Shown here: piece by piece, positions 8,473-39,734 of the stretch
Layout of the letters: the number at the start of each line of letters is the position of its first letter
Position numbering within the stretch: the stretch's first letter is position 1
Assembly: GCA_022353185.1 (NCBI GenBank)
Contig: JAKRWB010000159.1
Span: forward strand, 1-39,734
Direction: 5' to 3'
DNA: 39,734 nucleotides
Origin: ANME-2 cluster archaeon
GTDB lineage: Archaea > Halobacteriota > Methanosarcinia > Methanosarcinales > Methanocomedenaceae
The notes under the pieces: model-generated
What the model was told of the DNA's origin: nothing
The model's input: the letters and a program-made list of their open reading frames with translations, nothing else
Database searches by the model: none
Made by a program: the position numbers and the translations under genes

Positions 8473-8559
8473 GTGAAAATATGAACCAGGACATATCCAG
8501 TATCGCTTTATTTTAACGGTGAAAATATGAATCAAGACATATCTAGTATCGCTTTATTT
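8473..8559 (+). repeat. Tandem duplication (46-bp period) of the ribosome-binding region and first 11 codons of the NYN gene
   Basis: Segments 8473-8513 and 8519-8559 match at 38 of 41 positions. Copy 1 forms the mini-ORF ATG 8481..TAA 8516, encoding MNQDISSIALF, which is identical to the N-terminus of the 8527 gene. Confidence 0.85.
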
Positions 8560-11403: not shown

Positions 11404-11454
11404 AACAGGGGATTGTCACGAAAGTATTGAATCAGTATCCAGTAGGGGCATGAA

Positions 11455-12084
11455 ATGAAAAAGAGGAAAAAGGTTGAGGTTGACCTATCAAAAGATGAGA
11501 TAAATGAAACTGAGGAAGAGATAACGACGCAGGAAGACCAGAAACAGAGCATCGCAAATGGGGAAATGGCGGTTGGGGAATGGGCAGCAGAAGGGGTTGA
11601 GGAACGATCAGTGGAAGAATTAGCCCATGAGCTGGATGAATCCAGGGGACTTGCGTTAGATTACCTGAACCATCTCCAGCGGCTTACCGCAGAGTTTGAC
11701 AATTACAAAAAACGGATGGATAGAGAACGGGCAGAGATTATCGAATATGCAAGCTTTGACCTTGTAGCAGAACTCATCGATGTGATGGAGAATATGGAGC
11801 GGGGGATTGCCAGTGCCAGGGAGTCCCAGGACAGGGATTCTATTTTGAAGGGAATGGAGATGGTATATAACCAGTTGAAAACAATCCTTGAATCAAGGGG
11901 TCTTGAACCTATTGATGCAGTGGGGCAGAAGTTCGACCATCACTGTCATGAAGCAATGATGAAGATACTCTCTGATGAGTATCCTGACAATACTGTGATA
12001 GAAGAGTTCCAGCGGGGATACAGGATTAAGAACAGAGTGGTTCGATATTCAAAGGTAAAGTTATCAGAGAATAAAGAGAAATAG
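11455..12084 (+). CDS. grpE: Nucleotide exchange factor GrpE
   Basis: The 209-aa ORF has an acidic N-terminus, then YLRLQAEFDNYKKR-like LQRLTAEFDNYKKRMDRE and C-terminal GYRIKNRVVRYSKV. It lies directly upstream of dnaK. Confidence 0.9.
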   Translation: MKKRKKVEVDLSKDEINETEEEITTQEDQKQSIANGEMAVGEWAAEGVEERSVEELAHELDESRGLALDYLNHLQRLTAEFDNYKKRMDRERAEIIEYASFDLVAELIDVMENMERGIASARESQDRDSILKGMEMVYNQLKTILESRGLEPIDAVGQKFDHHCHEAMMKILSDEYPDNTVIEEFQRGYRIKNRVVRYSKVKLSENKEK

Positions 12085-12134
12085 TTGATAAATATAAGAA
12101 TGTACTATTCTAAACAGATGAGGTGAATTATTAA

Positions 12135-13994
12135 ATGGCAAAAATAATAGGAATTGACCTGGGAACCAGCAATTCGGCGGCAGCAGCTTTTATAGGTGGC
12201 CGTCCTACGATAATACCCAGTGCAGAAGGCACAAGTGTTGGCGGAAAGGCATTCCCGTCAGTGGTGGCTTTCACCAAGGATGGGCAGAAACTGGTTGGAG
12301 AACCAGCTCGCAGACAGGCGGTAAGCAATCCTGAAGGCACTATCATGGCCATCAAGCGGAAGATGGGCACGGGTGAAAAGGTTGATGTCAGGGGCAAGGA
12401 ATTCACTCCCCAGGATATTTCTGCCTTTATTCTGCAGAAAATTAAGCAGGATGCAGAAGCACACCTTGGTGATAAGGTGGAGAAGGCGGTCATAACCGTA
12501 CCTGCATATTTTAATGATAACCAGCGACAGGCCACCAAGGATGCAGGTGAGATTGCAGGTCTTGAAGTAGTGCGTATTATCAATGAACCTACTGCTGCTT
12601 CGTTGGCATACGGACTTGATAAGAAGGGTGACCAGGAAATACTTGTATATGATTTTGGTGGCGGTACCCTTGATGTTACTATTATGGAAATGGGCGGAGG
12701 TGTGTTCGAGGTAAAATCCACGTCAGGCGATACCCAGCTTGGCGGTACTGATATGGATCAAATACTCATAGATTACATTGCCGAGGATTTCAAATCAAAA
12801 GAAGGAATTGACCTTAGGAAAGATAAGACCGCTGTACAACGCCTGCGAGAAGCTGCAGAGAAGGCCAAGATCGAACTTTCGACCACTATGCAGACTTCCA
12901 TCAACCTGCCGTTCATTACTGCTGACCAGGCAGGACCAAAGCATCTTGAGATGAGCCTTACAAGATCCAAACTGGAAGAACTGGTCATGCCTGTAATAGT
13001 GAAAACACGACAGCCTTTGGAACAGGCTATCAAGGATGCAGGAATGAAGACATCTGATATCACCACTGTCATTTTGGTGGGTGGACCCACCCGGATGCCT
13101 GTGGTGAAGAAGTTCGTGAGTGATGTGGTTGGCAGGGAGCCGGAACGCGGTGTTGACCCCATGGAATGTGTGGCTATGGGTGCAGCAATCCAGGCCGGTG
13201 TACTGGAAGGTGAGGTCAAGGATGTGCTGCTGCTTGACGTAACACCGCTGTCACTTGGTATCGAGACCCTGGGTGGTGTGTCAACCCAGCTCATCGAGCG
13301 CAATACCACTATTCCTACCAGGAAGAGCCAGATATTCAGCACGGCTGCTGATAACCAGACCTCAGTGGACATTCATGTGCTCCAGGGTGAGCGTGCCATG
13401 GCAGCAGACAATACTACGCTGGGACGGTTCACTCTTGTAGGAATTCCAATGGCGCCGAGGGGTATTCCCCAGATAGAGGTGACTTTTGACATTGATGCAA
13501 ATGGTATCATTCACGTGACTGCCAAGGATCTGGGTACCAATAAGGAGCAGAAGATAACCATCACTTCCACTCATAAGCTTTCAGAGGAAGATATCAAGAA
13601 GAAGATGGATGATGCCAAGCAGTATGAGGAAGAGGATAAGAGGATAAAGGAACTGATCGAGATAAAGAATCAGGCAGATACCCTGGCCTATACTACTGAG
13701 AAAGCCCTGTCCGACCTGGGTGACAAGGTATCTGAGGAAGAGCGCAACTCCATCACAGAGAAGGTAGCTAAGACAAGGGAATCCATCGCCAGCGATAACA
13801 AGGATACTATCCAGACAGCCATCGATGAACTCACCAAGGAGATGCAGAAAATCAGTACTAAGATATACGAGCAGGCCGCACAAGAGCAGGCGGCTGCTGG
13901 TGCTAAGGCTTCGGGATCAGAAAATGAAGGTGAGGCCAGTGATGATAATGTGGTAGATGCTGAGTACGAAGTTGTAGACGAGGACAAGGATTAA
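12135..13994 (+). CDS. dnaK: Hsp70 chaperone DnaK
   Basis: The 619-aa ORF contains [30 protein letters not shown] and [10 protein letters not shown], the canonical Hsp70 signatures. Confidence 0.97.
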
Positions 13995-14043
13995 TTACTA
14001 ATCCTTATCCTTTTTTTTATTTTTTTTTAAAAACTGATCCCAC

Positions 14044-15207
14044 ATGGCTGACAAACGCGATTATTACGACATACTTGGTGTTGACAAGAAGATTTCCGGA
14101 GATGAACTGAAGAAGGCTTACAGGAAGCTGGCCCTGGAGTACCATCCGGACCGCAACAAGGATGCTGGGGCTGAGGAGAAGTTCAAGGAGATAAGCGAAG
14201 CTTACGGTGTGCTTAGTGATTCTGAAAAGCGTGCCAAGTATGACCAGTATGGGCATGCAGGTGTTGACGGGCGCTGGAGCCAGGAGGATATTTTCAGGGG
14301 TGTGAACTTTGAGGACATTTTCAGGGGTTCTGGTGGAGGTGGTGGCGGTTTTAGTAGCAGTATCTTTGATTCTATCTTTGGCGGTGGAAGCCGCAGGCGT
14401 GGCGGACCCCAACGGGGTTCCGACCTGAGGATCGATCTTGCCATAATATTTGAGGAAGCCTACAAAGGAGTCGAAAAATCCATCAAACTGCCCAGGACCG
14501 AGAATTGTTCCACCTGCGGCGGTAGTGGTGCCAAACCAGGCACTGACCCCCAGACCTGTAAGACCTGCGGCGGTAGCGGACAGGCAACCCGTGCACAGCA
14601 GACGCCGTTTGGGCAGTTCATGACCACCAGCACCTGTCCCACCTGCCGAGGCAGGGGTAAAGTGGTGGATGACCCGTGTACTGAATGCCATGGCAGTGGT
14701 AAGGTGCAAAAGAAGCGCACGATAAAGGTGAAAGTGCCTGCCGGTATTGAAAGCGGTTCACGCATGCGAGTATCTGGCGAGGGCGAGCACGGCTCTGCAG
14801 GTGGGCCTCCGGGTGATCTGTTCGTGGATCTTTATGTAAAACCCCACTCGTTGTTCAAGCGTGTGGGTAATGATGTTGTGGTTGGGGCGGATATCAATTT
14901 TACCCAGGCAGCGCTGGGTGATGAGATTATGGTGCCCACTGTGGACGGTAAGGTGAAGTTGAAGGTTCCTGCCGGTACACAGACGGGGGCCACGTTCAGG
15001 GTTAAGGATAAGGGCATGCCCAATATCCATGGATACGGGCAGGGGGATTTGCATGTGCAGGTGAATGTGAAGGTTCCTAAGAAACTTGATTCGAAACAAA
15101 AGGAATTACTGAGGGAGTTTGCGAAAGCCAGTGGGGAGAAGCCTCTAAAGGAGAATGAGAAGGGGCTGTTTGAGAAGGTTGTTGATGGGGTAAAGGATAA
15201 GATTTAA
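14044..15207 (+). CDS. dnaJ: Co-chaperone DnaJ
   Basis: The 387-aa ORF has a J-domain with the HPD motif (YHPDRNK), a G/F-rich linker and four CxxCxGxG zinc-finger repeats. Confidence 0.95.
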
Positions 15208-27492: not shown

Positions 27493-28701
27493 ATGGAAAG
27501 TTTTAATATGGAAAGTTTCAAAAAATTAGGTATAACGAAGCCTATTTTAAAATCAATAATTGAACAGAGATTTGAAAATCCCACTGAAATACAGGAAAAA
27601 GCCATTCCTTTAATTCTTGCAGGAAACGATGTTATAGCCGGGTCATCTACAGGTTCCGGAAAAACGCTTGCGTTTGCATCAGGTATATTGCAAAATTCTA
27701 TCAAAGGAAATGGTGTCCAGGCTTTGATCCTGACTCCTACCAGGGAACTGGCAGAGCAGGTCGCAAACAGTTTCAGGCTATTTTCAAAATACAAACATTT
27801 AGAGATCGTTGCAGTCTATGGAGGTATGGGTATCAACCCGCAAATCAAGGCATTGAAGACAGCAGATGTTGTTGTAGGCACACCAGGCAGGATGCTTGAC
27901 CATCTCGCAAGAAAAACTATAAAATTGGGTAAAGTAGAAACCCTTGTCCTCGATGAAGCAGACCGTATGTTTGATATGGGATTCAAAAATGATGTGGAAA
28001 AGATCATCAAACAGTGTCCTCCGGACAGGCAGACTCTTTTATTCTCGGCAACAATCTCAAGCGATATTGTCAAACTCTCCAGGAACAGCATGAAAAAACC
28101 GCTTCAGGTCTCTGTTAATCCTTATGTTGACGTGGGTAATCTGGATCAGACATATTACCAGGTCCAGGATGATATGAAATTATCTTTACTGGTGCATCTG
28201 TTGCAGCATGAAAAATCAGACCTGGTAATGGTTTTCTGCAATACTAAAAGAAATACTGACAAAGTTGCAAAGAACCTGAGGGCTTCAAATATTGATGCAC
28301 AGGCTATTCATGGCGGATTGACCCAGGGTAAACGGATTACTGTAATGAAGCAATTCAGTACAGGGAAATCATGTGTCCTTGTATGCACAGATGTAGCTGC
28401 AAGAGGGCTCGATATCGAGGGTATTTCTCATGTTTATAATTATGATGTACCCAGGGAGAGCAATCAGTATATCCACAGGATCGGCAGAACTGCAAGAGCA
28501 GGGGCCAAAGGGAAGGCAATAAGTATCATTTCCAGAAGTGACCAGGGCGATTTTACAAGTATATTGAGAGAAAATAATGTAGAGATAAAGAAAGTGAAAG
28601 TACCTAGCTTTGAGAAGGTCGTGGTGCGAAAACCACATAGAAACATGAATAACGCCATCTCAAGAAATGGTCAGCAACCCAACAGGCACAGGAATCGTTA
28701 A
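27493..28701 (+). CDS. DEAD-box ATP-dependent RNA helicase
   Basis: The 402-aa ORF has the Q motif (F..PTEIQ) and the motifs GSGKT, PTRELA, DEAD, SAT and HRIGRTARAG. The true start may be the second ATGGAAAGTTT at 27508. Confidence 0.93.
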   Translation: MESFNMESFKKLGITKPILKSIIEQRFENPTEIQEKAIPLILAGNDVIAGSSTGSGKTLAFASGILQNSIKGNGVQALILTPTRELAEQVANSFRLFSKYKHLEIVAVYGGMGINPQIKALKTADVVVGTPGRMLDHLARKTIKLGKVETLVLDEADRMFDMGFKNDVEKIIKQCPPDRQTLLFSATISSDIVKLSRNSMKKPLQVSVNPYVDVGNLDQTYYQVQDDMKLSLLVHLLQHEKSDLVMVFCNTKRNTDKVAKNLRASNIDAQAIHGGLTQGKRITVMKQFSTGKSCVLVCTDVAARGLDIEGISHVYNYDVPRESNQYIHRIGRTARAGAKGKAISIISRSDQGDFTSILRENNVEIKKVKVPSFEKVVVRKPHRNMNNAISRNGQQPNRHRNR

Positions 28702-28740
28702 TTTTTGCGTTATTCTATAACTAATGCACGACAAAAAAAT

Positions 28741-28943
28741 CACTTACATCAGTTTTAGTGGGTAAATTTTTTACCCACTACCACTCTTTTTTTACCTTCT
28801 ATATTAATTACAGATAGCAAATGGAATCTACTTACAGAATTCCAGCCTGGATTGTGCATAACTGAAAAACAACAAAAAATTTTTGACTCCCCACCAGCCT
28901 ATTACATCCGAGAGATGAAAGAAGCTTGTCCGAGATAGCTGAC
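28741..28943 (+). repeat. Diverged duplicate of the terminator / RNase P promoter / first ~35 nt of RNase P RNA (copy A)
   Basis: It aligns by eye with 29881-30014: CACTTACATCAGTTTTAGTGGGTAAATTTTTTACCCACTACCACTCTTTTTTT versus CTCACATTAGTTTTGACCGGGTAAAATTTTTACCCAGTACCACTCTTTTTT, then CCCCACCAGCCTATTACATCCGAGAGATGAAAGAAGC..TCCGAGATAGCTGAC versus CCCCACATCCACCTATTACACCCCGAGAGAGGAAGGACGGCCTCCGGGTCAATTGACC. Copy A carries an extra ~65-nt internal segment. Confidence 0.75.
28758..28793 (+). terminator. Hairpin plus oligo-T tract downstream of the DEAD-box helicase gene
   Basis: GTGGGTAAA-TTT-TTTACCCAC forms a 9-bp perfect stem, followed by CTCTTTTTTT. An equivalent hairpin and T-tract lies at 29902-29936. 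Confidence 0.5.
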
Positions 28944-29056
28944 TTTTAATGTCTAAACTACATTATATTGTTCACAATAACTATTTATGTGATAGGATTT
29001 ACAACATTATAAGTAAACATCATCATGATAATAATAACTACATTTATGGTGTGTAT

Positions 29057-29227
29057 ATGACGAAAAAAGAAAAATGTAAGGAACTCATGGCGAAATTCTT
29101 CGGCCCTGCAAGTGCTGCAACCGTTGATAATTTAAGTGAGGATGAATGTGTTCAAAAATGCAGGGCTAAAGTTTTTGCATTTTTGGGTGAAGAACAAGCA
29201 AAAGAATTTGATAAAATATGGGGGTGA
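29057..29227 (+). CDS. Small soluble hypothetical protein (56 aa from the SD-preceded ATG)
   Basis: GGTG lies 5 nt upstream of the ATG at 29057. The protein reads MTKKEKCKELMAKFFGPASAATVDNLSEDECVQKCRAKVFAFLGEEQAKEFDKIWG. The longer track ORF (from 28949) begins in His/Asn-rich junk. Confidence 0.5.
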   Translation: MTKKEKCKELMAKFFGPASAATVDNLSEDECVQKCRAKVFAFLGEEQAKEFDKIWG

Positions 29228-29233
29228 AAAAAA

Positions 29234-29563
29234 ATGGTAATAGAACTACTAAACTACCAAACAAGCATGTTAAATCCAATACTTAAGTTGTTAGCCCCCT
29301 TACTTTATGTAATTGCTTTGATACTTTTCTTTAAGGCAAGTAAAGCATATGGTGGTGAGTTTAAGAAAGGACTTAATTTTTTAATGATAAGCTTAATTCT
29401 TGGAATTGCAGCTTTTACCTTTGGATTTTTAGGGGATATAATAACACTCGATTTCAAATGGGGCGAATCATTATTCTTCCTGGCATTTGCCATTATGAAT
29501 TTGTTTGTTGCTGCAAAATTCTTGAAATATGTTGAAGAGGTGAATGAAGATGTTAGATTTTAA
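29234..29563 (+). CDS. Small membrane protein (3 predicted TM segments), paralogue 1
   Basis: The 109-aa ORF has a GGGGTGA Shine-Dalgarno-like sequence upstream. It is similar in length, N-terminus (LNYQTSMLNP versus FNYDTSIFNP) and hydrophobic layout to the next ORF. Confidence 0.6.
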   Translation: MVIELLNYQTSMLNPILKLLAPLLYVIALILFFKASKAYGGEFKKGLNFLMISLILGIAAFTFGFLGDIITLDFKWGESLFFLAFAIMNLFVAAKFLKYVEEVNEDVRF

Positions 29564-29873
29564 TTACGATACTAGCATATTCAATCCTGCCTTAAAAATA
29601 GACATTGCATTAATATATATATTTGTAATTTTACTTTATTACAAAGCATATAAGGCATTCGAAGGAGCACTGAATAAAGATTTACTTAAAATTCTTTTAT
29701 TTGTGGGTGTCTTCGGATTTCTCAGTGCTCTTACCAGTTGTTTTGGTCATGGAACTGAATTCGGATTTAATGATGAATTTAGTTTAAAGTGGTTTGAAAG
29801 TTTATTTTATATTGTCCAGGCAAGTCTCTTCATATATGGTGGTTACAAGTTGAACATGAGTACGAAAAAGTAA
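29544..29873 (+). CDS. Small membrane protein, paralogue 2 (start overlaps the previous gene by 20 nt)
   Basis: The 109-aa ORF has GGTGA upstream of its start. It is a paralogue of 29234-29563. Confidence 0.6.
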   Translation: MKMLDFNYDTSIFNPALKIDIALIYIFVILLYYKAYKAFEGALNKDLLKILLFVGVFGFLSALTSCFGHGTEFGFNDEFSLKWFESLFYIVQASLFIYGGYKLNMSTKK

Positions 29874-29880
29874 ATTTTTT

Positions 29881-30014
29881 CAACTCACATTAGTTTTGAC
29901 CGGGTAAAATTTTTACCCAGTACCACTCTTTTTTCTTTCCAACAACAAACCTTATACCCCACATCCACCTATTACACCCCGAGAGAGGAAGGACGGCCTC
30001 CGGGTCAATTGACC
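29881..30014 (+). repeat. Copy B of the duplicated terminator / RNase P promoter / RNase P 5' segment (the copy joined to the intact gene)
   Basis: See copy A. It contains a TATA-like CTTATA at 29951-29956, about 25 nt upstream of the inferred RNase P RNA 5' end. Confidence 0.75.
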
Positions 30015-30365
30015 TGAGGAAAGTCCCCCCACCACCCGGACACACGAACGCCTGTAATGGGCGTAGGATGAGAGTCTTGGCAGCTGCCGTGCGCAAAACC
30101 GGCGGCTCACGGTCTGGCGTAATGCCGGGCCGCATGATGGCACAGAAACGATACCGTACCGCGTTAATGCAATGATACCGCAAGGTTGAGGTCGCGCGGA
30201 TAAGCGGATGGAACGCGTGAATCCTCGTGGGTGCAAGCCAAACAGGGACCATACGGCCTGTCCGGGGCCGGTCCGGAGTTGGCGCTTAGCCGAATGCCGT
30301 TATATGGCGGACCACATCCCAAGGGAAGTGCCGCTAAAACAGAAGGGGGCTTACTATCCTCACTC
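29981..30365 (+). ncRNA. rnpB: RNase P RNA (archaeal type A)
   Basis: The universal CR-I GAGGAAAGTCC lies at 30016-30026. ACAGAAA is internal. CR-V AACAGAAGGGGGCTTAC lies at about 30338-30354. The P3 hairpin is CCTCCGGGTC-AATT-GACCTGAGG. The terminal helix pairs GAGAGAGGA (29981-29989) with TCCTCACTC (30357-30365). The region is GC-rich relative to its flanks and has no plausible CDS. The ends are approximate. Confidence 0.88.
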
Positions 30366-30481
30366 ATTCGCCTAATCATTCATTTCCTTCCTTATTTCTC
30401 CGCTTATCTACCCATTATAGTGAAAAACCAAACAATGTTGATTAATTTAATGCACATTCCAACGAGTGATGAGTAATAAAC

Positions 30482-30580
30482 CACAGAGGACACGGAGGAC
30501 ACAGAGGACACGGAGGACACAGAGGACACAGAGGACACAGAGGACACAGAGGACACAGAGGACACAGAGGACACAGAGGA
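30482..30580 (+). repeat. 9-bp tandem repeat, 11 units (CACAGAGGA / CACGGAGGA)
   Basis: Counted directly, there are 9 units of CACAGAGGA and 2 of CACGGAGGA. After a ~17-nt spacer come three degenerate inverted units (30598-30632, GTGTCCCTCTGTGCTCTCAGTGTACTCTGTGG). Confidence 0.95.
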
Positions 30581-30761
30581 GTAAAACAGATACAAGCTTT
30601 GTGTCCCTCTGTGCTCTCAGTGTACTCTGTGGTTAAATTATAATTGTCTGAAAAACAGAGTGTTAAGAAATTAGTATCGATGATTTCTATTGAAGTCATC
30701 TATCGATGATTTTTGTCAAAGTCAGGTAATAATATACAATCATAGAGACCGAAAACCAAAA

Positions 30762-30965
30762 ATGGAATACGATAAAAAGATATTAGGATTAGAATACATA
30801 ACAGATAATATCAAAGTCTTGAGATTTAAAAGAGTTGCTGTGAGAGATTATATTTTTCTTATGCAAAAAGAACATGAGAAATTGTTTGATGAAACATTCA
30901 ATAAGTTGATAAATAAACCATATAGCTTTTTATTTGAGATTTATGACTCAACTTCAACAGATTGA
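30762..30965 (+). CDS. Hypothetical small protein (67 aa)
   Basis: This is the internal Met of track ORF 30690-30965. I recognise no family. It lies in an AT-rich region, and two 24-bp direct repeats sit upstream. Confidence 0.3.
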   Translation: MEYDKKILGLEYITDNIKVLRFKRVAVRDYIFLMQKEHEKLFDETFNKLINKPYSFLFEIYDSTSTD

Positions 30966-31033
30966 ATTGATTTACACAGTCTGTATTAGGCTGTAAAAAT
31001 TTTACAAAATGAAACAAAAAAAGTAAAAAAGAG

Positions 31034-32674
<1,641 letters not shown>

Positions 32675-32947
32675 CTACTCTATTTTTGCGATTATGTCTT
32701 TCTGGTCAAGGACGATGTACTTTTCACCGTCAATGTCCATCTCATCAAAACTGTACCCTGAATAGAGAATGGTATCTCCCTTCTTGATGGGGCATTCTTT
32801 AGCATCCATTGATGCGCTTGTTTCTACTACGATGCCCTGTTTTTTCTTTTCCTTGGCAGTTTCAGGGATGTATATCCCGCTCGCAGTCTTCTCGTCTTCT
32901 TTGATCGGTTTGATTAAAACTCTCTTACCTAATGGTACTATTTTCAT
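32675..32947 (-). CDS. groS: Co-chaperonin GroES (Cpn10)
   Basis: The 90-aa ORF reads MKIVPLGKRVLIKP...TASGIYIPETAKEK...G.VV, the typical GroES pattern. It lies immediately upstream of groEL. Confidence 0.93.
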   Translation of the reverse strand: MKIVPLGKRVLIKPIKEDEKTASGIYIPETAKEKKKQGIVVETSASMDAKECPIKKGDTILYSGYSFDEMDIDGEKYIVLDQKDIIAKIE

Positions 32948-33059
32948 GTCATTACCCCTATACAGATTTAAAAATTGTTTCTGTCAATGAAGTATCTTAA
33001 TTGTTTGCAGTTCTATAAAAGCATTTCGCTTCAAGCCTGTTTGAGAGGCTTTATGCAAA

Positions 33060-33434
33060 GTGATATGTATGAGTGGGAAGGGAAATATTCAGGCATTTAA
33101 GCCGGGTGAAGAATATATGGGACATGATGCAATCCTCCAGGTACGGGCCGACCGCCATATGACCGAAGATGAGACCAGGTCGGTACATAATATTGTCGAC
33201 AAATACTGCAGCGGCGTAGACTACGAGTATCTTGATATCAAGCGGGGGATTGATGTTTATATCACCAATGTGGCCAGTGCCAGGCATGCGGCTGCCAGGA
33301 TAATGAAAGTGCTGGGGGGCAGCAAGAAGGAGAGTTCGAAGTATTTGCGGGTGCAGGGGGGTAGGGTGTTGTACCAGTTTACGGTACGGGTGAAGCTGCC
33401 GAAGGAGGCTTCGGGGGGGAGGTATGGGTTTTGA
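33060..33434 (+). CDS. Small NMD3-family-like protein
   Basis: The 124-aa ORF contains AILQVRAD, RGIDVYITNVASARHAAARIMKVLGG and LYQFTVRVKLP, which resemble the NMD3 N-terminal domain (COG1499) as remembered. Its last ~157 nt are duplicated at 34119-34275. Confidence 0.6.
   Translation: MICMSGKGNIQAFKPGEEYMGHDAILQVRADRHMTEDETRSVHNIVDKYCSGVDYEYLDIKRGIDVYITNVASARHAAARIMKVLGGSKKESSKYLRVQGGRVLYQFTVRVKLPKEASGGRYGF
33275..33432 (+). repeat. Direct repeat copy 1 (3' end of the NMD3-like gene)
   Basis: It is near-identical to 34119-34275. By eye there are two single-base differences plus a short indel-containing patch near the 3' end. Confidence 0.9.
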
Positions 33435-33480
33435 TTCCAGGTGTCTGTGGCTATGACCGATTCATCAGGAATTCATAAAT

Positions 33481-33496
33481 ATATGTTTAAACATAT
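33481..33496. promoter_or_regulatory. Perfect 16-bp palindrome ATATGTTTAAACATAT just upstream of vapB (candidate operator)
   Basis: The sequence is its own reverse complement and ends 8 nt before the vapB ATG. TA promoters are typically autoregulated through such palindromes. Confidence 0.5.
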
Positions 33497-33504
33497 GTTT
33501 AACT

Positions 33505-33720
33505 ATGACCACCAAAACAATCACTATCAGGGAAGATGTGTACAACATGCTCTTGTCAATCAAGGGAACCAAGGAAAGTTTCAGCAAGTTTTTTGAGAGA
33601 ATGGTTATATCCCGGCGCAATGTGGATAAATTGAAGGAACTGCGTGGTTTTGTTGAGGTCAAAGAAAAAGATACCCTGTTGAAAGAGTTGTCAGAAAAAA
33701 GAAAGGAGATACGATATTGA
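33505..33720 (+). CDS. vapB: VapB-type antitoxin (archaeal putative-antitoxin family, PF02697-like)
   Basis: The 71-aa ORF begins MTTKTITIREDVYNMLLSIKGTKESFSKFFERMV, matching the KTI.I.E.VY..L...K...ESFS pattern. It overlaps the PIN gene by 4 nt. Confidence 0.8.
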   Translation: MTTKTITIREDVYNMLLSIKGTKESFSKFFERMVISRRNVDKLKELRGFVEVKEKDTLLKELSEKRKEIRY

Positions 33721-34094
33721 TTCTTGTTGATACTGATGTCCTTATCGAAATATTTGACAGAAATTCGGAAAAAGGCGACAAGGCATTGAAGAAGATAGAG
33801 GAGACAGGAGAAGATATCACTACCACTTCTTTGAATCTGCATGAGATCCTGTACGGTTTGCATAAATATACCGACCATGCAAAACTCGAAAGGATACTTG
33901 TGCTTGACGCTGTTGAGTTCACAAAGGATGATGCAGTTCTTTCCTCAAAACTTGAAGTAGAAACAGAGAAAAAGGGGCAGAAGGTTCCCAGGTTCGATGC
34001 CATGATTGCGGCGGTTGCAATAAACCGGGGATTTAAGTTGTTTACTTTTAATGAGAAGCATTTTAAGGTATTCAGTGATTTGACGCTGGTTTGA
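33717..34094 (+). CDS. vapC: PIN-domain toxin VapC
   Basis: The 125-aa ORF has a TTG start. ILVDTDVLIE carries the first acidic residue, followed by a conserved E in LHEILYGL and FDAMIAAVAI carrying the third acidic residue. Confidence 0.85.
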   Translation: MILVDTDVLIEIFDRNSEKGDKALKKIEETGEDITTTSLNLHEILYGLHKYTDHAKLERILVLDAVEFTKDDAVLSSKLEVETEKKGQKVPRFDAMIAAVAINRGFKLFTFNEKHFKVFSDLTLV

Positions 34095-34118
34095 TTGGAT
34101 TTCTTTTCATTCACTCAA

Positions 34119-34350
34119 CAGTGCCAGGCATGCGGCTGCCAGGATAATGAAGGTGCTGGGGGGCAGCAAGAAGGAGAGTTCGAAGTATTTGCGGGTGCAG
34201 GGGGGTAGGGTGTTGTACCGGTTTACGGTACGGGTGAAGCTGCCGAAGGAGGCTTCGGGAGGAGATATGGGTTTTAGATATGTTTCTATTAATGCCAGAT
34301 ATGCGATATTTTCATCTTATTATGCAGATATTTTTACATGGGATTTTTAA
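34119..34350 (+). pseudogene. Orphan duplicated 3' fragment of the NMD3-like gene (direct repeat copy 2 plus its divergent tail)
   Basis: It encodes ..MKVLGGSKKESSKYLRVQGGRVLYRFTVRVKLPKEASGG.., nearly identical to the C-terminus of 33060-33434, but it lacks the rest of the gene. Confidence 0.8.
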
Positions 34351-34361
34351 TAGATCCTTCT

Positions 34362-34916
34362 TCACCTGACTAATAAATTTTTGATCAATAAGATAAATCC
34401 AGACAATATAGGTGTTAAGATCATTATCATAACCGCAGCTATGATACCCCACAATAATGTCGAGGTATAGAATGAGTAGATAATAATGGGTATTGAAATG
34501 ATCATTGCCAAAACCAGATCACGTTTTGAAATAATTACTATCTTGTTCTGGGTATTGGTATTTTTTTTGCCAAGGATCTCTACATTACTGAATTCAAGGT
34601 CATTTAACACTATTGAGCGAAATTGTCCTTTGCTAAAAAAATTCAAAACCAATATCACAGTTCCTAATAAAAGAACCATAAAAATCAATAATATAAGTAC
34701 AACGATGATGCCCCAGATGAGCATCCCCATTTGAAACGAGTAACTTATGATTTGGAAAGAAATTATGAATGTTAATGATGCGAGGATCATGGCTATAGTA
34801 ACAACCAAATCTTTTGCAGTCTTTTCTTTCAAATCAATACTCCCTGGTTTAATGGTCTGGTTTTTCTGTGGTGAAGCAGAGTGATCAATTATCCCTTTGT
34901 GTTCTTTATCCGACAC
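34362..34916 (-). CDS. Hypothetical integral membrane protein
   Basis: The 184-aa ORF has four long hydrophobic segments. I recognise no family. Confidence 0.55.
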   Translation of the reverse strand: MSDKEHKGIIDHSASPQKNQTIKPGSIDLKEKTAKDLVVTIAMILASLTFIISFQIISYSFQMGMLIWGIIVVLILLIFMVLLLGTVILVLNFFSKGQFRSIVLNDLEFSNVEILGKKNTNTQNKIVIISKRDLVLAMIISIPIIIYSFYTSTLLWGIIAAVMIMILTPILSGFILLIKNLLVR

Positions 34917-34958
34917 TTTCGTATTCCTATGATTCAGTTCACTTCTATGATGGGATTA

Positions 34959-35459
34959 CTATTCAATACCAGAATTGTCATAGTACATGTGTATTAATGA
35001 ATATCCTTTACCTTCCGGACTTTCAATGGTTATGCTCAGGTGGGGTGAACAAATTTCATCATCACAATCAGATTTTATATATTCAAGTTGTCTGAAGAAT
35101 ATCCGCTGATCATTATCTTTGTTGACTATTGCATCTTGATATTTTAACTTCCAATCATATTTCGGCATCTCGTTCAAATAGAACTGGCTCACTTTCTCAA
35201 TGTCATCTACTGTGTAGTACGTAATTTGGATGTTCATCCCATAACCAGATACTTCTCCGAACATCATTTTATGATATTCAGTCCTAATACTTGGCTCATA
35301 TTTGGGTACGTCAGACAGTTCCTCCCCCATGACCTCTTCTGTTTGCGGGTCGTCATAATATGATTCATAATAATCATCCCCACCCGGGTAGAACATGCAC
35401 CCGCTGATGAGTACCGATACTAATGTTATAATAAAGAACATACCTGTATTTATTTTCAT
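34959..35459 (-). CDS. Hypothetical lipoprotein-like secreted protein
   Basis: The signal peptide MKINTGMFFIITLVSVLISGC has a lipobox-like LISGC. The mature part is acidic and Tyr-rich. Confidence 0.55.
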   Translation of the reverse strand: MKINTGMFFIITLVSVLISGCMFYPGGDDYYESYYDDPQTEEVMGEELSDVPKYEPSIRTEYHKMMFGEVSGYGMNIQITYYTVDDIEKVSQFYLNEMPKYDWKLKYQDAIVNKDNDQRIFFRQLEYIKSDCDDEICSPHLSITIESPEGKGYSLIHMYYDNSGIE

Positions 35460-35569
35460 GATTGAAAACCCCAACCTGAATATATTAAATAAACATAATA
35501 AATCTTGCTAATTGTTGCATTAAATAATAATCTGAAAAGGAGGAAGAAATAAAATCCCTGGTTCTGCCT

Positions 35570-37024
35570 TCACTCTTCTTCCAGTTCCTGATAAATCGTA
35601 CTGAACTGCTCCAACGCCGCCCCGAGGTTCTCTGTAATGTCCCTTGCAAGCACATCCGGGGGAGGCAGGTTCTCAGAATCTTCAAGGCTTTCATCCTTGA
35701 GCCAGAATATGTCAAGACTTGCCTTGTCCCGCTGCATGAGTTCGGCATAATCAAATACCCTGAACTGTGCGTTTTCCTTTCTGTCATGCCTGTTATTGGG
35801 ATTGTAGCATTTGATGAAATCCTTCAGGCTATCGTAGGCGAGCGGATTTGTCTTCAGGGTAAAATGCTGGTTGGTCCTTAAATCATATATCCATAACTTC
35901 TCGGTCCAGGGCTTCTCACTTGCCTGTTTGCGGTCAAAGAACAGCACGTTAGCTTTAACACCCTGGGCATAGAACACGCCTGTGGGCAGCCGCAGCAGTG
36001 TATGGACATCGCACTCGGCCAGCAGTTTCTTCCGCACGGTCTCGCCTGCGCCGCCCTCAAAGAGTACATTATCCGGCACCACAATGGCGGCTTTACCGTT
36101 GATCTTGAGCAGGGTCTTCACATGCTGGAGGAAGTTCAACTGCTTGTTCGAGGTGGTTGCCCAGAAGTCATCCCTGTCATAGGTCTGGGTGTTCTTGTCT
36201 GCTTTTCCATCGCCGTTGACAATGGTGTAGCTGCTCTTTTTGCCAAAGGGAGGATTGGTAAGCACCATGTCAAACCTGTCGCCTGGGTCTGAGATCAGTG
36301 CGTCCCCGGTTTTTATGGGGCTCGTTTCCCCGCCTATGCCATGCAGGTAGAGATTCATTGCGCACAGCCTGACCACATTATCGACTATGTCCCACCCTTT
36401 AAAGGTATTGAGTTTCAGGAATTGTTTCTGTTCTTTATCGATATCATAATGCGAAATATAATCGTGAGCGGCCAGCATGAAGCCGCCGGTACCGCAGGCC
36501 GGGTCGCAGATGGTCATGCCGGGTTCGGGTTTCATGACCTCGACGATGGCCTTTATGAGCGGCCTGGGTGTGAAATACTGGCCTGCGCCGCTTTTGGTGT
36601 CCTCTGCATTCTTCTGCAGCAGTCCTTCGTAGATATCGCCTTTGACATCAATGTCCAGTCCCAGCCAGGTTTCACCATTGATAAGTTCGATGAGCCGCCG
36701 CAGTTTTGCAGGGTCCTGTATCTTGTTCTGGGATTTCCTGAAGATGACACCAAGCATTCCGCTCTCTTTGGCCAGGGTTTCGAGCATGTGGCGGTAATGC
36801 ACTTCAAGCGCATCCCCATCTTTTTCACTGAGGCTTTGCCAGTCATAATTTGCGGGAATGATTGATTCTTTGTGAAAGGGCGGTCTGGTCTGTTCATCAG
36901 CCATTTTCAGGAAGACGAGATAGGTCAATTGCTCCACATAATCGCCGTAGCTCACGCCGTCGTCACGGAGTACGTTGCAGTAGTTCCAGAGGCGCTGGAC
37001 AATGGTTGCAGATTCGTTGTTCAT
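35570..37024 (-). CDS. hsdM: Type I restriction-modification system methyltransferase subunit HsdM
   Basis: The 484-aa ORF has the HsdM N-terminal domain (LWNYCNVLRDDG..Y.EQLTYLVFLKM), SAM motif I (DPACGTGGFM) and catalytic motif IV (NPPFG). Confidence 0.93.
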   Translation of the reverse strand: MNNESATIVQRLWNYCNVLRDDGVSYGDYVEQLTYLVFLKMADEQTRPPFHKESIIPANYDWQSLSEKDGDALEVHYRHMLETLAKESGMLGVIFRKSQNKIQDPAKLRRLIELINGETWLGLDIDVKGDIYEGLLQKNAEDTKSGAGQYFTPRPLIKAIVEVMKPEPGMTICDPACGTGGFMLAAHDYISHYDIDKEQKQFLKLNTFKGWDIVDNVVRLCAMNLYLHGIGGETSPIKTGDALISDPGDRFDMVLTNPPFGKKSSYTIVNGDGKADKNTQTYDRDDFWATTSNKQLNFLQHVKTLLKINGKAAIVVPDNVLFEGGAGETVRKKLLAECDVHTLLRLPTGVFYAQGVKANVLFFDRKQASEKPWTEKLWIYDLRTNQHFTLKTNPLAYDSLKDFIKCYNPNNRHDRKENAQFRVFDYAELMQRDKASLDIFWLKDESLEDSENLPPPDVLARDITENLGAALEQFSTIYQELEEE

Positions 37025-37039
37025 AGTTAAATCCGGGTG

Positions 37040-37366
37040 TTAAGCTGCGAACATTACTTTTCCACTTTTAGCAAATTCGGCTACAGGTGAGGTTTCATTT
37101 TCAAATTCTTCAGATGTAAGGGTGATAATATCCAGGGGGACCATGAATTTTCGAATTGTTTTTATCTCAGCATCCTTTGTTAAACGGGCTCGTTCAAAAA
37201 TATCTTTGTTCTTAAAATCATCCGATATTATCAATATATCTACATCACTATTATCAGTTGTTTCAGTAGCCTGTGAACCAAATAAGATGATTTTCGAGAT
37301 ATTTAGTCTATTCTCTTTCAAGCATTGCTCCAAGAATTTAATTACCTTTTCAATATTATTATACAT
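37040..37366 (-). CDS. Minimal nucleotidyltransferase (MNT-type antitoxin-like), with no HEPN partner in sight
   Basis: The 108-aa ORF contains LFGSQATETTDNSDVDILIISD, the GS..(n)..D.D polymerase-beta-fold NTase motif. Confidence 0.8.
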   Translation of the reverse strand: MYNNIEKVIKFLEQCLKENRLNISKIILFGSQATETTDNSDVDILIISDDFKNKDIFERARLTKDAEIKTIRKFMVPLDIITLTSEEFENETSPVAEFAKSGKVMFAA

Positions 37367-37392
37367 AAACTCAATTGATACATTTGTTGATT

Positions 37393-38583
37393 TTAGAACG
37401 ATGACAACAATGTCTGTTTTCGTGACACGTCTTTTTTCATTTTTGCGATTTTTTTATAATCTTCTTTTTTTACTTGATCCTTACTGGAAAGATATTCCAA
37501 AGCTCTTTGGTCATCGATAATTTTCCTTAGTCGAATGGATTCTAATCCTATTTGCTCTAAATTAAAACTTTTTTGAAGAATTTTTACATCTAAGTCTTCA
37601 TTTGTGAAAGAATCCATTTTAATAATCGAATCATCTGGATAGATTTCTTGAATTTCATTTGGGGTTAATTTGTAATATCCGTAATCTGCTTTATTAAATA
37701 ACCTCAGTTTATTTTCTTCACGATTTTGTAATTTCTCAAAAAACTCTTTAGGCCCTTTTAACGGTTTATGTTTTTCACCTATACTATCAAAACCGAGACC
37801 GAAAGATAGAATGTCTTTTGCACCTACTACATTCGCATCTTTATTGAATCTTCCTTGATTTGCATTTATTGAATGAATAAAACTATTTTCCAAAAGATCA
37901 TGTTCTTTTAATGAACGCATGAAACTTCTAATGGTCTGACGCATACTCAAAGGAGTTTTCCCATCAAAATCAAATACAAAAGCATCAATCTCTTTTTTTG
38001 CGTAGAAATCAACAATATCAGGTATGAATAACAGTGATGGTGGGACTATACCAATAATAGGTTTATGGTTCAATGTTTCGATTATTTCAATCGATTCTTC
38101 TAAAAATGATGTATATTTTTCAAATTCACCTTCTGAATTGATTCGTTGAGGGAGTTTGGGGATAATTGGTAATGGCGTAATATCAGAATATTCATAAGCA
38201 GTGTCAAGAATGAATTCTAATGGTTTTTTTTCTGGATATTTTATATCATCGTATTCAATAAAAAGAATGTTAATTTCTTTATCAGTATTTGTTTTTCGGG
38301 TTAAAGAATTTAGTTCATAATTGAGTTTGTCTAATTTATCAGGAATATTTAAAACGCTATAGATTGAGTTCTTAGTTAAATCTTTACTAAGAGAGAATCT
38401 TTTGTATAACTCATTTATTCCTTTTGTCTTATCATTAAAAAGTAGTTTTGAATTTGTTTTTGATAAATTCAATGATTTCGTTGGTGTTGTTAGTTTTTTC
38501 CCGTTTATGCGAAGGTCTTTTGTAACATATAACGAGTCATCATCTGGAGAAATCCTTTCGAACTCAATATGTTTAGACATCAT
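37393..38583 (-). CDS. Unassigned 396-aa protein; weak collinear tRNA-guanine transglycosylase-like motifs (hypothesis)
   Basis: This is a long uninterrupted ORF in an AT-rich region. The protein is Cys- and Trp-free. The motifs are INGKKLTTP (aa 26-34), IEYDD (109-113), IIGIVPPSLL (176-185) and GLGFDS (262-267). See the findings. Confidence 0.75.
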   Translation of the reverse strand: MMSKHIEFERISPDDDSLYVTKDLRINGKKLTTPTKSLNLSKTNSKLLFNDKTKGINELYKRFSLSKDLTKNSIYSVLNIPDKLDKLNYELNSLTRKTNTDKEINILFIEYDDIKYPEKKPLEFILDTAYEYSDITPLPIIPKLPQRINSEGEFEKYTSFLEESIEIIETLNHKPIIGIVPPSLLFIPDIVDFYAKKEIDAFVFDFDGKTPLSMRQTIRSFMRSLKEHDLLENSFIHSINANQGRFNKDANVVGAKDILSFGLGFDSIGEKHKPLKGPKEFFEKLQNREENKLRLFNKADYGYYKLTPNEIQEIYPDDSIIKMDSFTNEDLDVKILQKSFNLEQIGLESIRLRKIIDDQRALEYLSSKDQVKKEDYKKIAKMKKDVSRKQTLLSSF

Positions 38584-38626
38584 TTATCCTTTTATTTTTA
38601 ATAAATAAAAAACTAATGCATTTATT

Positions 38627-39112
38627 TCAAAAAGATTTATTCATTCTGAATCTTGAAGAAGACAATTTATTGAGTAGTTTGTCTCGTTTATCTTTGGTGA
38701 TTGCCTGTTTCTTTAGCAGCAATTCAATTAAGCCGATAGTCCCGGTAAAAACCACATTATGTTTTTCTGCGATTTGTCTCGCTTTTTTATCATCAATTAT
38801 ACAATAATTCTTATCGACGGATGAATCTAATTTTAACCACCATAAGATAACTTCAATTTCCCCATTTCCTAGATAGGGATATCTATTCTTGAAATGAAAA
38901 ATATCTATTTCAGGCAAACTGGCCAGTATTTCGATATTCCCATTCGCCATATTCGATTTTAAAGGATCTGAAGTCCTACCGTTTTCTATTTCCTTAAGTA
39001 CACTTCTTGGTATCTTCAACTCATATCCTAATTCTATGAATTTATGCAATATTTCTGGTTCATCAAGTTCAGTATAAAAAGCTATGACTGGGGATGAATC
39101 TAAAATTTTCAT
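38627..39112 (-). CDS. DUF3368-type PIN-like toxin
   Basis: The 161-aa ORF contains GNGEIEVILW...CIIDDKKARQIAEKHNVVFTGTIGLIELLLKK, matching the GE.E.I...DD..AR..A......GT.G.L pattern of DUF3368. Confidence 0.7.
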   Translation of the reverse strand: MKILDSSPVIAFYTELDEPEILHKFIELGYELKIPRSVLKEIENGRTSDPLKSNMANGNIEILASLPEIDIFHFKNRYPYLGNGEIEVILWWLKLDSSVDKNYCIIDDKKARQIAEKHNVVFTGTIGLIELLLKKQAITKDKRDKLLNKLSSSRFRMNKSF

Positions 39113-39123
39113 AATCAGAGTAC

Positions 39124-39711
39124 CTATGAATATATCTGAATCCCTTTCAGTTTAACTTCTCTAACAAAATCATCAATATTAGTTCCAGAGATTTCCAGGG
39201 CTTTCCCAAAACTAATCTTGTTTTTTGCATAGAGATTTAATGCAATATTTTTTCGTTTGGGCTGTATTTTATTAATCTTTATCGACTCTTCTGTCATTTC
39301 AGGATAAGTAAAATATATGAACCCGAGCAATTCATCTTCGGTCATATCATTCAGCATATCCTTGAAATCCTCTATCATTTCTTTTTCTTCGGTAGTGATA
39401 TTTTTGCCTATTATTTGTGCGATTTCCTTACCAAGACCAGTTAATTTTAGTTTATTTCCCTCTTTTACAACGACTCTTGCAGATTCAAGCTGTTCCAGTT
39501 CTTCATCTGCAGTTTCACTATAAGGTCCCATAAAATCAGCTTCAAAATCAGCATCATCTGCAAGTTCTTCATTGTTCTTGCATAAAAGAAAAAGTTCCTT
39601 TTGATACCAGAGTTTGCCTTTGATTGGCTCAAAATTGTTTGCACTCAGGAGTAACAAAGCGTATTTTTGAGTTTCAGTCAGGTTTTCAAATATTCTTTTC
39701 TTAATATCCAT
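39124..39711 (-). CDS. Fusion protein: Panacea/DUF4065-like N-terminal domain + UPF0175 HTH antitoxin C-terminal domain
   Basis: The 195-aa ORF has a C-terminus ALNLYAKNKISFGKALEISGTNIDDFVREVKLKGI, which fits the UPF0175 pattern, the usual partner of DUF3368. The N-terminus (WYQKELFLL...FEADFMGPYSETADEELEQL) resembles SocA/Panacea-type domains. It lies 11 nt upstream of the PIN gene. Confidence 0.65.
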   Translation of the reverse strand: MDIKKRIFENLTETQKYALLLLSANNFEPIKGKLWYQKELFLLCKNNEELADDADFEADFMGPYSETADEELEQLESARVVVKEGNKLKLTGLGKEIAQIIGKNITTEEKEMIEDFKDMLNDMTEDELLGFIYFTYPEMTEESIKINKIQPKRKNIALNLYAKNKISFGKALEISGTNIDDFVREVKLKGIQIYS

Positions 39712-39734
39712 TTTCGAATCTCTTTAAGCACATC

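Follow-up and report, generated by a model that had tools for sequence, protein, structure and literature searches.

How does a small toxin-antitoxin (TA) module come to be enclosed by two nearly identical copies of the end of a neighboring gene? We addressed this question in an archaeon of the ANME-2 cluster (ANME, anaerobic methanotrophic), at a locus where a vapB-vapC pair lies between direct repeats (REP copies) that duplicate the 3′ end of an NMD3-like gene (assembly GCA_022353185.1, contig JAKRWB010000159.1, positions 1 to 39,734 of the forward strand; this whole stretch of 39,734 nt is called the window below). ANME-2 archaea, which have not been brought into culture, play a key part in the oxidation of methane in the sea, and gene exchange among them is poorly known. 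An earlier note, made from the sequence of the window, read the locus as a clean example of a TA module behaving as a minimal mobile or recombination-delivered cassette. Having compared the window with related loci (40 from an NMD3 alignment search, ~45 in all after later look-ups, designated by L numbers), we consider another reading probable, namely that the REP copies are boundary scars and recombination substrates in a variable island of TA and defense genes, which is anchored at the NMD3-like stop codon in ANME-2.

Anatomy of the repeats and of the enclosed module

Aligned base by base, the two REP copies (Table 1) are 97.5% identical over 157 positions, which bears out the near-identity reported earlier, and the pair is beyond chance. 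The copies differ by three substitutions and by a 1-nt deletion in a G-run of copy 2; a repeat search recovered 33275-33418 and 34119-34262 (98% over the first 144 nt), and MAFFT extended the match to the full 157/158 nt. They start 844 bp apart and enclose a segment of 686 bp (33433-34118), which holds, as the earlier note had it, exactly one intact vapB-vapC module with its own putative palindromic operator, as documented by Pfam matches and 16-nt palindromes. Copy 1 completes the NMD3-like open reading frame (ORF), as shown by the PF04981 match and by a family-typical tail, ...GGRYGF*; copy 1 and the NMD3 end of the related locus L041 share 96.8% identity. Copy 2 is indeed the orphan 3′ fragment with a different tail that it had been taken for: its ancestral TAG stop would fall at 34275-34277, and the 1-nt deletion moves the frame past it.

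Table 1. Coordinates of the NMD3-like locus, the vapBC module and the downstream island in the window
Feature	Position	Strand	Remarks
NMD3-like small protein gene	33117-33434	+	105 aa from ATG 33117; possible GTG start 33060 gives 124 aa; PF04981
REP copy 1	33275-33432	+	final 158 nt of the NMD3-like gene, ending on base 1 of the TGA stop; attL-like
vapBC leader c′	33433-33480	+	accompanies vapBC in every context
Operator-like element	33481-33502		two overlapping perfect 16-nt palindromes, 33481-33496 (ATATGTTTAAACATAT) and 33487-33502 (TTAAACATATGTTTAA)
vapB antitoxin	33505-33720	+	71 aa; PF02697, E=1.1e-12
vapC PIN-domain toxin	33717-34094	+	125 aa; PF01850, E=8.7e-17 over residues 2-116
Spacer d′	34095-34118	+	between the vapC stop and REP copy 2
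REP copy 2	34119-34275	+	orphan frameshifted copy of the NMD3 3′ end; attR-like
Cassette a	34276-34916	-	flank and 184-aa membrane-protein gene (34362-34916)
Rest of variable island	34959-39734 (window end)	-	all genes on the minus strand
171-aa protein	in 34959-39734	-	
hsdM	35570-37024	-	full length
MNT-type nucleotidyltransferase	37040-37366	-	
396-aa protein	in 37039-39723	-	no family match
PDC-S70-like protein	38627-39112	-	
PDC-M19A/UPF0175-like protein	39124-39711	-	

The gene that anchors the locus matches Pfam family PF04981 with E=5.6e-11, at model positions 145-243 only, and has homologs of 55-96% identity, ending in ...RYGF*, in metagenome-assembled genomes (MAGs) of ANME-2/Methanosarcinales; no relative in the PDB was found by sequence. 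Full-length NMD3 carries N-terminal zinc-binding motifs. The host gene, with its 105-124 aa and its match to part of the PF04981 model only, is probably best called NMD3-related. Its upstream neighbors are GroES/GroEL in one clade versus a 410-aa protein in the other. The nearest protein homologs bear the name "ANME-2 cluster archaeon," which places the host among the ANME-2-type Methanosarcinales. Exact-protein look-ups of the 124-aa NMD3 and of the window's VapC returned no record for either, and the papers found in a literature search did not link NMD3 with an archaeal integration site.

The enclosed genes have the marks of a type II VapBC module, with a small coupled antitoxin gene directly upstream of a PIN-domain gene. 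The TTG start of vapC (33717-33719) overlaps the TGA stop of vapB (33718-33720), giving an ORF overlap of 4 nt, and the translated toxin has the acidic PIN residues D5, E43 and D94 as well as N112. More than 25 full-length VapC clusters are 88-99% identical, and the only match to a solved structure is a weak one to the toxin of a toxin-antitoxin complex (3zvk_A, E=9e-4). The ratio of nonsynonymous to synonymous divergence (dN/dS) is 0.04-0.14 for vapB against five orthologs and 0.06-0.17 for vapC in most pairs, so that the module as a whole (0.04-0.17) is under strong purifying selection.

In this family, the VapB-VapC complex represses its own promoter at a palindrome, and VapC is a PIN RNase that is set free when VapB decays. 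The predicted operator of the window lies directly upstream of vapB. L041, L046 and L048 have it without any change; L044 differs by 2 substitutions, and one of the units is missing from L012. The leader, too, is preserved in all five of these loci, and an A/T-rich stretch within it, ~25 nt before the vapB ATG, may be TATA-like. In most pairs, the leader resembles the "c-type" flank described below (antisense hsdM codons ~55-40) more closely than 2000 shuffled sequences do, and it probably derives from an hsdM 5′ remnant. The VapBC genes themselves are unusual in nothing.

The earlier note had also singled out a short string, GGTT(T)TGATT (GGTTTGATT), that recurs at both junctions. It is present at 33427-33437 and 34088-34097, but its meaning as a junction motif did not survive: the second occurrence is the vapC stop-codon region, 21 nt before copy 2, and the string is not enriched in the window. 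Behind vapC, GGTTTGATT is native vapC sequence and accompanies modules without a REP (L044) or with a ~15-nt REP stub (L048); therefore we rejected the pair as a target-site duplication. The core motif GGGTTTTGATT, with one match in the window versus 1.66 expected (at most 1 mismatch), is not a dispersed site. The first ~15 nt of the spacer likewise accompany vapC in all contexts. The same 15 nt (TGATTGGATTTCTTT) lie directly 3′ of the NMD3 stop in L008 and of an orphan REP in L018, which is the leftover expected from a deletion between a REP end and a vapC end, each of which carries G(G)TTT(T)GATT.

No inverted repeat joining the cassette ends was found in the repeat search, nor any transposase, and nothing there conforms to a transposon, an insertion sequence (IS) or a miniature inverted-repeat transposable element. 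A tRNA or other RNA gene as the real integration target was rejected as well, because the window contains no tRNA gene and its only Rfam match, RNase P RNA, lies 3 kb upstream.

Arrays of NMD3-end repeats in related ANME-2 genomes

The vapBC unit does not stand by itself, as a clean cassette would, but forms part of a multi-cassette array of NMD3-end repeats that is found across ANME-2 relatives. Across ~20 related contigs, 2 to 4 REP copies separate TA or defense cassettes downstream of NMD3 (among them L007, L012, L017-L024, L026 and L041). In L017, for example, NMD3 is followed by a membrane-protein gene, a REP (17-158), a PDC-M11B/PDC-M11A/Schlafen-like cassette, another REP (20-158) and the next block; the distal part comprises an hsdM 5′ fragment, an MNT nucleotidyltransferase, a HEPN protein, a REP (from 76) and conserved genes. 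The cassettes measure 0.7-4 kb, lie in both orientations and differ in order between genomes, and their cargo consists of TA or candidate defense genes (MNT/HEPN, hsdM, PDC-M11A/B, HEC-01A, PDC-S70 and Schlafen-AlbA2).

The joints of these cassettes are precise. At least five unrelated right flanks begin 0-2 nt from the stop codon: a, leading to the membrane-protein gene; b, to PDC-M11; c, to the hsdM 5′ fragment; d, to the hsdM 3′ end; and f, to a DUF4276/HEC-01A or HEPN-like gene. Three of them follow the intact gene in some genomes and an orphan REP in others, with b behind the gene in L021 and behind a REP in L017/L022/L026, c behind the gene in L007/L054 and behind a REP in L012/L019/L020/L024, and d behind the gene in L008 and behind a REP in L018. 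The left end of an orphan REP is set by the cassette on its left, being position 17 after the membrane-protein gene, 20 or 24 after PDC-M11, 1 after vapBC and 75 for the last REP.

In the relatives, the original gene end lies displaced at the distal border of the island. The intact NMD3 of L025 has the same variant 3′ end and right flank as the last REP of L022 and L017 and, with few substitutions, of L020; in L007 the last REP shares the right flank of L025 but has the standard 3′ end, which lacks the 7-nt deletion. In the window, the distal border lies beyond the window end. Judged on sequence, this is the pattern classically left when DNA with a replacement end inserts again and again at the 3′ end of a gene. 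The comparison with attL/attR-like site-specific integration, drawn in the earlier note, is thus upheld for the architecture, the intact target gene and the empty sites, but not for a self-mobile unit that was freshly delivered.

Sites without the module occur as well. L002 and L041, which represent one species (~89% DNA identity to the window in the GroEL-NMD3 region; NMD3 protein 91-92%), provide the empty site that the note had suggested looking for: their NMD3 ends in TAG and is joined straight to the DNA found 3′ of copy 2 (window 34120-34388 versus L002 2289-2558, 92.6%; versus L041, 93%). L025 and L055 are empty sites for the whole island.

The note had named misassembly, together with a lack of empty-site alleles in related genomes, as the circumstance in which its interpretation would fail. 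The repeats are not an assembly artifact, because the vapC-spacer-REP junction recurs in diverged assemblies (L041, 92%; L014, 89%; L012, with vapC internally deleted) and because two further contigs reproduce the whole structure or the junction of copy 2. One of them, L043 (a JGI contig from 2 samples), matches window positions 28622-37475, both repeats included, with 2 single-nucleotide polymorphisms (SNPs) and a difference of one 9-nt tandem-repeat unit; the other, L056 (assembled by Logan from a different run), matches 34230-35299 at 100% identity and joins the variants specific to copy 2 to the downstream flank. Copy-specific variants tie each REP copy to its own flanks.

Three observations concern individual assemblies. 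In the NKAJ01 contigs L015 (1928-2230) and L016 (3659-4194), the REP or most of NMD3 stands in tandem without cargo, with N at the joint and frame breaks in GroEL; this is probably an assembly problem, not biology. L014 (JABZFQ010000037) is binned as Desulfobacteraceae and carries the ANME-2-type vapBC-REP (89% identity), behind which lies a DUF4276/HEC-01A pair; the contig was probably mis-binned from the archaeal partner of the consortium. Two contigs of MAG CSMAG_2516 show the membrane-protein cassette directly after NMD3 (L006) and after vapB, a deleted vapC and a truncated REP (L012), which indicates either strain heterogeneity or two copies in the bin.

Age of the module and history of the array

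The vapBC module (~33429-34110; leader, operator, vapB, vapC and ~15 nt past the stop) recurs at 85-92% identity in at least five neighborhoods, where it lies behind a decayed REP (L044/L045), a Big_1/invasin-like gene (L012, L046 and L048) or a 127-aa gene (L002/L041). In three different contexts, its left break lies no more than ~5 nt from the REP 3′ end (GGG^TTTT^GATT). On its right, a REP starting from position 1 follows in the window, L041 and L014, and variously truncated REPs elsewhere. Synonymous divergence (dS) from L041 amounts to 0.15 for vapB and 0.28 for vapC, compared with 0.31 for GroES, 0.49 for GroEL and 0.28 for NMD3. Because this matches the core genes, vapBC is about as old as the species split and not a fresh import.

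The order of the units has changed since then. The window reads NMD3, vapBC, REP and cassette a, whereas L041 reads NMD3, a remnant of cassette a, the 127-aa gene, vapBC, REP and the f flank, with vapBC ~0.7 kb further downstream; we found no single-step history that connects the two arrangements, and at least two events are needed. Orphan REPs are usually 84-89% identical to the resident gene and 89-96% to orthologous orphans. Accordingly old values were obtained for the vapC-linked REPs of relatives, with 84.7% identity between that of L041 and L041's own NMD3, and 83-87% (L041) or about 90-93% (L014) to functional NMD3 ends. Copy 2 of the window, at 97.5% to copy 1 and 96.2% to the NMD3 of L041, shares with the latter the TAG stop and the a-type flank. 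On these identities, it is only the REP behind vapC in the window that is young. Most simply read, the old REP of the module recently recombined with the end of a functional NMD3, the exchange lying close to the REP's left edge. Possible routes are gene conversion, Campbell-type insertion of a circle and a double crossover, the last with a donor where vapBC was already next to NMD3. Mapping of the crossover within the REP from SNP mosaics (window and L017 clade) was abandoned, as there are too few informative sites.

These observations suggest the following course of events. Time and again, DNA segments carrying their own copy of the gene end would have entered the NMD3-like gene at its end in the manner of Campbell, leaving the intact gene as attL and an orphan REP as attR. 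As each new insertion moves older ends downstream, the original gene end would come to lie at the far border of the island and the newest unit next to the gene. Later recombination of REP with REP would delete, transpose or re-order cassettes. In the window, the old resident vapBC with its leader, operator and REP would have come to lie directly behind NMD3 and upstream of the membrane-protein cassette, which adjoins NMD3 in the sister species, and the REP behind vapC would have been renewed from the functional NMD3 end by a crossover near its left edge or by gene conversion; such a recent renewal would account for the 97.5% identity of the copies. Candidates for the enzyme are a site-specific recombinase encoded elsewhere and host homologous recombination acting on 130-158 nt of homology, and the intermediate may have been circular or linear. 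The five independent joints are so precise that they speak for a site-specific step at some time; that no integrase was found speaks either for a trans-acting enzyme or for long-dead elements that host recombination now shuffles. Given what is known of the family, vapBC between recombinogenic repeats would penalize its own deletion, a likely side effect of the arrangement.

Several findings weigh against this account. Searches of the cassettes, the six complete islands, the rest of the window and the ~45 loci (Pfam, NCBIfam, PADLOC and gene tables) turned up neither an integrase nor a transposase nor any other recombinase, which extends what the note had said of the ~690-bp insert; a peptide-pattern scan of IMG/VR for a viral or plasmid REP carrier (a candidate attP) gave 0 hits, and the fetched contigs included no circle junction. 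Copy 2 is a mosaic: its left 140 nt are gene-like, and a G-to-A change and a shortened G-run in the final 18 nt recur in the vapC-linked REP of L014. This does not fit a single simple Campbell event and calls for at least one extra conversion or a coincidence. Selection to keep the gene intact, in place of a defined crossover site, could explain why the right boundary is shared and lies at the stop codon. Finally, all the data are metagenome assemblies. Two by-products of the searches may be recorded here. A 17-nt DNA pattern matched 5 contigs in IMG/VR, all of them chance matches of 17-21 nt, and these contigs were rejected as REP carriers. IS1634-family transposase fragments lie directly downstream of NMD3 in one ANME-2 MAG (L004, 6745-8170); no REP is linked to them, and they were the sole hit.

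If the ~0.69-kb vapBC were a minimal mobile cassette, recently delivered by a site-specific recombinase acting in trans, the repeats would be fresh attL and attR; near-identical repeats, an intact target gene, the empty site in L002/L041, identical module ends in at least five neighborhoods and left breakpoints clustered at the REP 3′ end are all as expected. However, vapBC is as diverged from L041 as the core genes are, the REP behind vapC is old elsewhere and therefore part of the module and not a product of the insertion, and the recombinase, an element bearing attP and a circular junction were not found. On these grounds the proposal of the earlier note is not borne out, and we regard it as unlikely. 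An integron-like platform, in which a recombinase encoded elsewhere recognizes the last codons of NMD3 (…GGGTTTT/GA), circular cassettes end in a REP comparable to attC and the gene end corresponds to attI, would explain why each cassette starts at the stop codon and has a REP at its other end, why the cassettes are small (0.7-4 kb), free of recombinases and re-ordered between genomes, and why the a-type flank with TAG, joined to NMD3 in L041, adjoins the vapC-linked REP in the window, the break falling within GGGTTTT; TA and defense cargo is also common to chromosomal integrons. Yet no recombinase is conserved on either side of the array, no IntI adjoins it (the neighbors of NMD3 being GroES/GroEL or the 410-aa protein) and the upstream neighbors vary by clade. 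The REP lacks an attC-like hairpin, its fold being weak (-20.6 kcal/mol, z = -1.98; short local hairpins only), the core motif is not enriched, orientation varies among the cassettes and vapBC comes with a promoter-like region of its own. This explanation is doubtful to about the same degree as fresh delivery.

The locus might also have arisen without any mobile element, if chromosome copies underwent unequal crossing-over or replication slippage locally and gene conversion came afterward; the arrays of the relatives would then stem from duplications of this kind. Methanosarcinales are polyploid, the near-identity of the window copies fits a recent conversion and a recombinase was not found; on the other hand, at least five unrelated cassettes meet the REP at the same nucleotide, the original end with its flank sits at the distal border, and the cassettes are AT-rich and of defense type, with a between-clade dS of island genes below that of NMD3, so that we consider this origin improbable. 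Least credible of all is a chimeric assembly whose path crossed between two strains or loci at a common repeat: short-read metagenome assemblies are open to it, L015/L016 have a tandem REP with N at the joint and L056 ends inside the REP, but L043 has the same structure, copy-specific variants are linked to their flanks and the junctions are found independently in diverged genomes. We thus retain the reading of the REP copies as scars and substrates of recombination in an island anchored at the gene end. A more far-reaching version of it can be put forward only tentatively: ANME-2 may possess a gene-end-anchored platform at which TA and defense cassettes ending in 130-158-nt NMD3 ends are inserted, excised and re-ordered at the stop codon. 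Its agent, to be held equally tentative, would be a recombinase encoded elsewhere or host homologous recombination alone, which would make it a functional analog of integrons with another type of site and no linked integrase.

Surroundings of the locus and comparison with known systems

The island continues downstream of cassette a to the end of the window (Table 1). A homolog of the membrane protein follows NMD3 directly in L006, L017-L020, L022-L024, L026 and L032. The hsdM gene of the window has no adjoining hsdS or hsdR; in relatives it is cut to its first ~55 codons abutting a REP (L007, L012, L017, L019-L021 and L024) or survives as a 145-aa fragment (L054) or C-terminal scraps (L008 and L018). 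The MNT nucleotidyltransferase has no adjoining HEPN partner in the window, whereas a HEPN gene follows it in L012, L017, L019 and L021. The low-GC block at 37039-39723 (27-34% GC) is 92.9% identical to L008, compared with 83.4% for the NMD3 region, and dS is 0.26-0.45 for the 396-aa protein and the nucleotidyltransferase versus 0.58-0.62 for NMD3, which hints at a transfer of the island between clades, with one short core gene as the yardstick.

Some features outside the island also deserve mention. An archaeal RNase P RNA gene (29981-30365, + strand; Rfam RF00373, 164.8 bits) forms a GC-rich patch (56-59% GC) between AT-rich segments. Just downstream of it lies a 9-bp tandem repeat (CACAGAGGA; 30482-30580, 11 copies, 95% matches), whose copy number varies between strains, since L043 has one unit fewer. 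Heat-shock genes occur twice within the same 40 kb (9751-15207 and 31034-32947), comprising a thermosome (group II chaperonin), GrpE, DnaK and DnaJ as well as a GroEL/GroES pair of the bacterial type. A protein with NYN and OST-HTH/LOTUS domains, a predicted RNase (8527-9579, + strand), is encoded in the core part of the window.

The locus is a sequence-defined hotspot at the stop codon of an NMD3-like gene, in which gene-end repeats record past gain, loss and re-ordering of cassettes. If a recombinase can be tied to it, it would represent a new archaeal integration system targeting a protein-coding gene and a candidate site for genetic tools; if no such enzyme exists, ~150 nt of repeated gene end together with host recombination would suffice for an integron-like array. 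In either case, vapBC between two recombinogenic repeats offers a natural test case for the idea that TA modules guard islands against deletion.

Among known systems, the tycheposon islands of Prochlorococcus reportedly show flexible genes punctuated by partial copies of the target gene that stem from repeated integration, with many segments lacking a recombinase; they are said to differ in that their targets are tRNA genes, their complete elements carry tyrosine recombinases or transposases and their hosts are bacteria. In the superintegrons of Vibrio, small TA cassettes with their own promoters stand in repeat-bounded arrays and are thought to oppose large deletions between repeats; like the tycheposon islands, they are an analogy of function. 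Integrons, however, have an adjoining IntI, an attI and hairpin-forming attC sites, none of which was found at the NMD3 array. Measured against these classes, the locus is not an integron, because IntI, attC and cassette orientation do not agree, and not a transposon, because none of the features of one is present. Of what marks an integrative element, it shows gene-end repeats with an intact gene, an empty site and a displaced end; it is not a classical one, because the cognate integrase is missing. A 2026 paper on variable hotspots in ANME-1 mentions neither direct repeats nor integrases.

Two bacterial systems come nearer. According to the review PMC5704250 (citing Pavlovic et al. 2004), elements related to the integrative and conjugative element (ICE) ICESt1, together with cis-mobilizable elements (CIMEs), accrete in tandem at the 3′ end of fda in Streptococcus thermophilus. 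As described there, gene-end direct repeats flank the units, the target stays intact, units free of integration genes but bearing attL/attR stand in tandem, and accretion and deletion both occur, much as at the NMD3 island; unlike it, those elements are bacterial, their att repeats are short, and some strains have integrase-bearing ICEs or integrative and mobilizable elements at the same site (PMC5704250). The NMD3 island has an archaeal host, repeats of up to 158 nt, an NMD3-like target and no integrase-bearing relative among the ~45 loci. The ssrA islands of Dehalococcoides are bounded by 20-bp repeats of the end of the transfer-messenger RNA (tmRNA) gene, and sixteen of them have a conserved serine-recombinase module next to attL (PMC3146451). 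They resemble the NMD3 island in lying in tandem 3′ of a single-copy gene, in their gene-end repeats and strain-specific cargo and in including some proposed CIMEs without an integration module (PMC3146451); the NMD3 island differs in lacking the serine-recombinase module, and the target in Dehalococcoides is a tmRNA gene. It is an archaeal island on a protein-coding gene, its repeats are long, and none of the units sampled has a recombinase. In anatomy, its nearest known counterpart is the way in which integrative elements, and CIMEs devoid of an integrase, accumulate in tandem where a gene ends.

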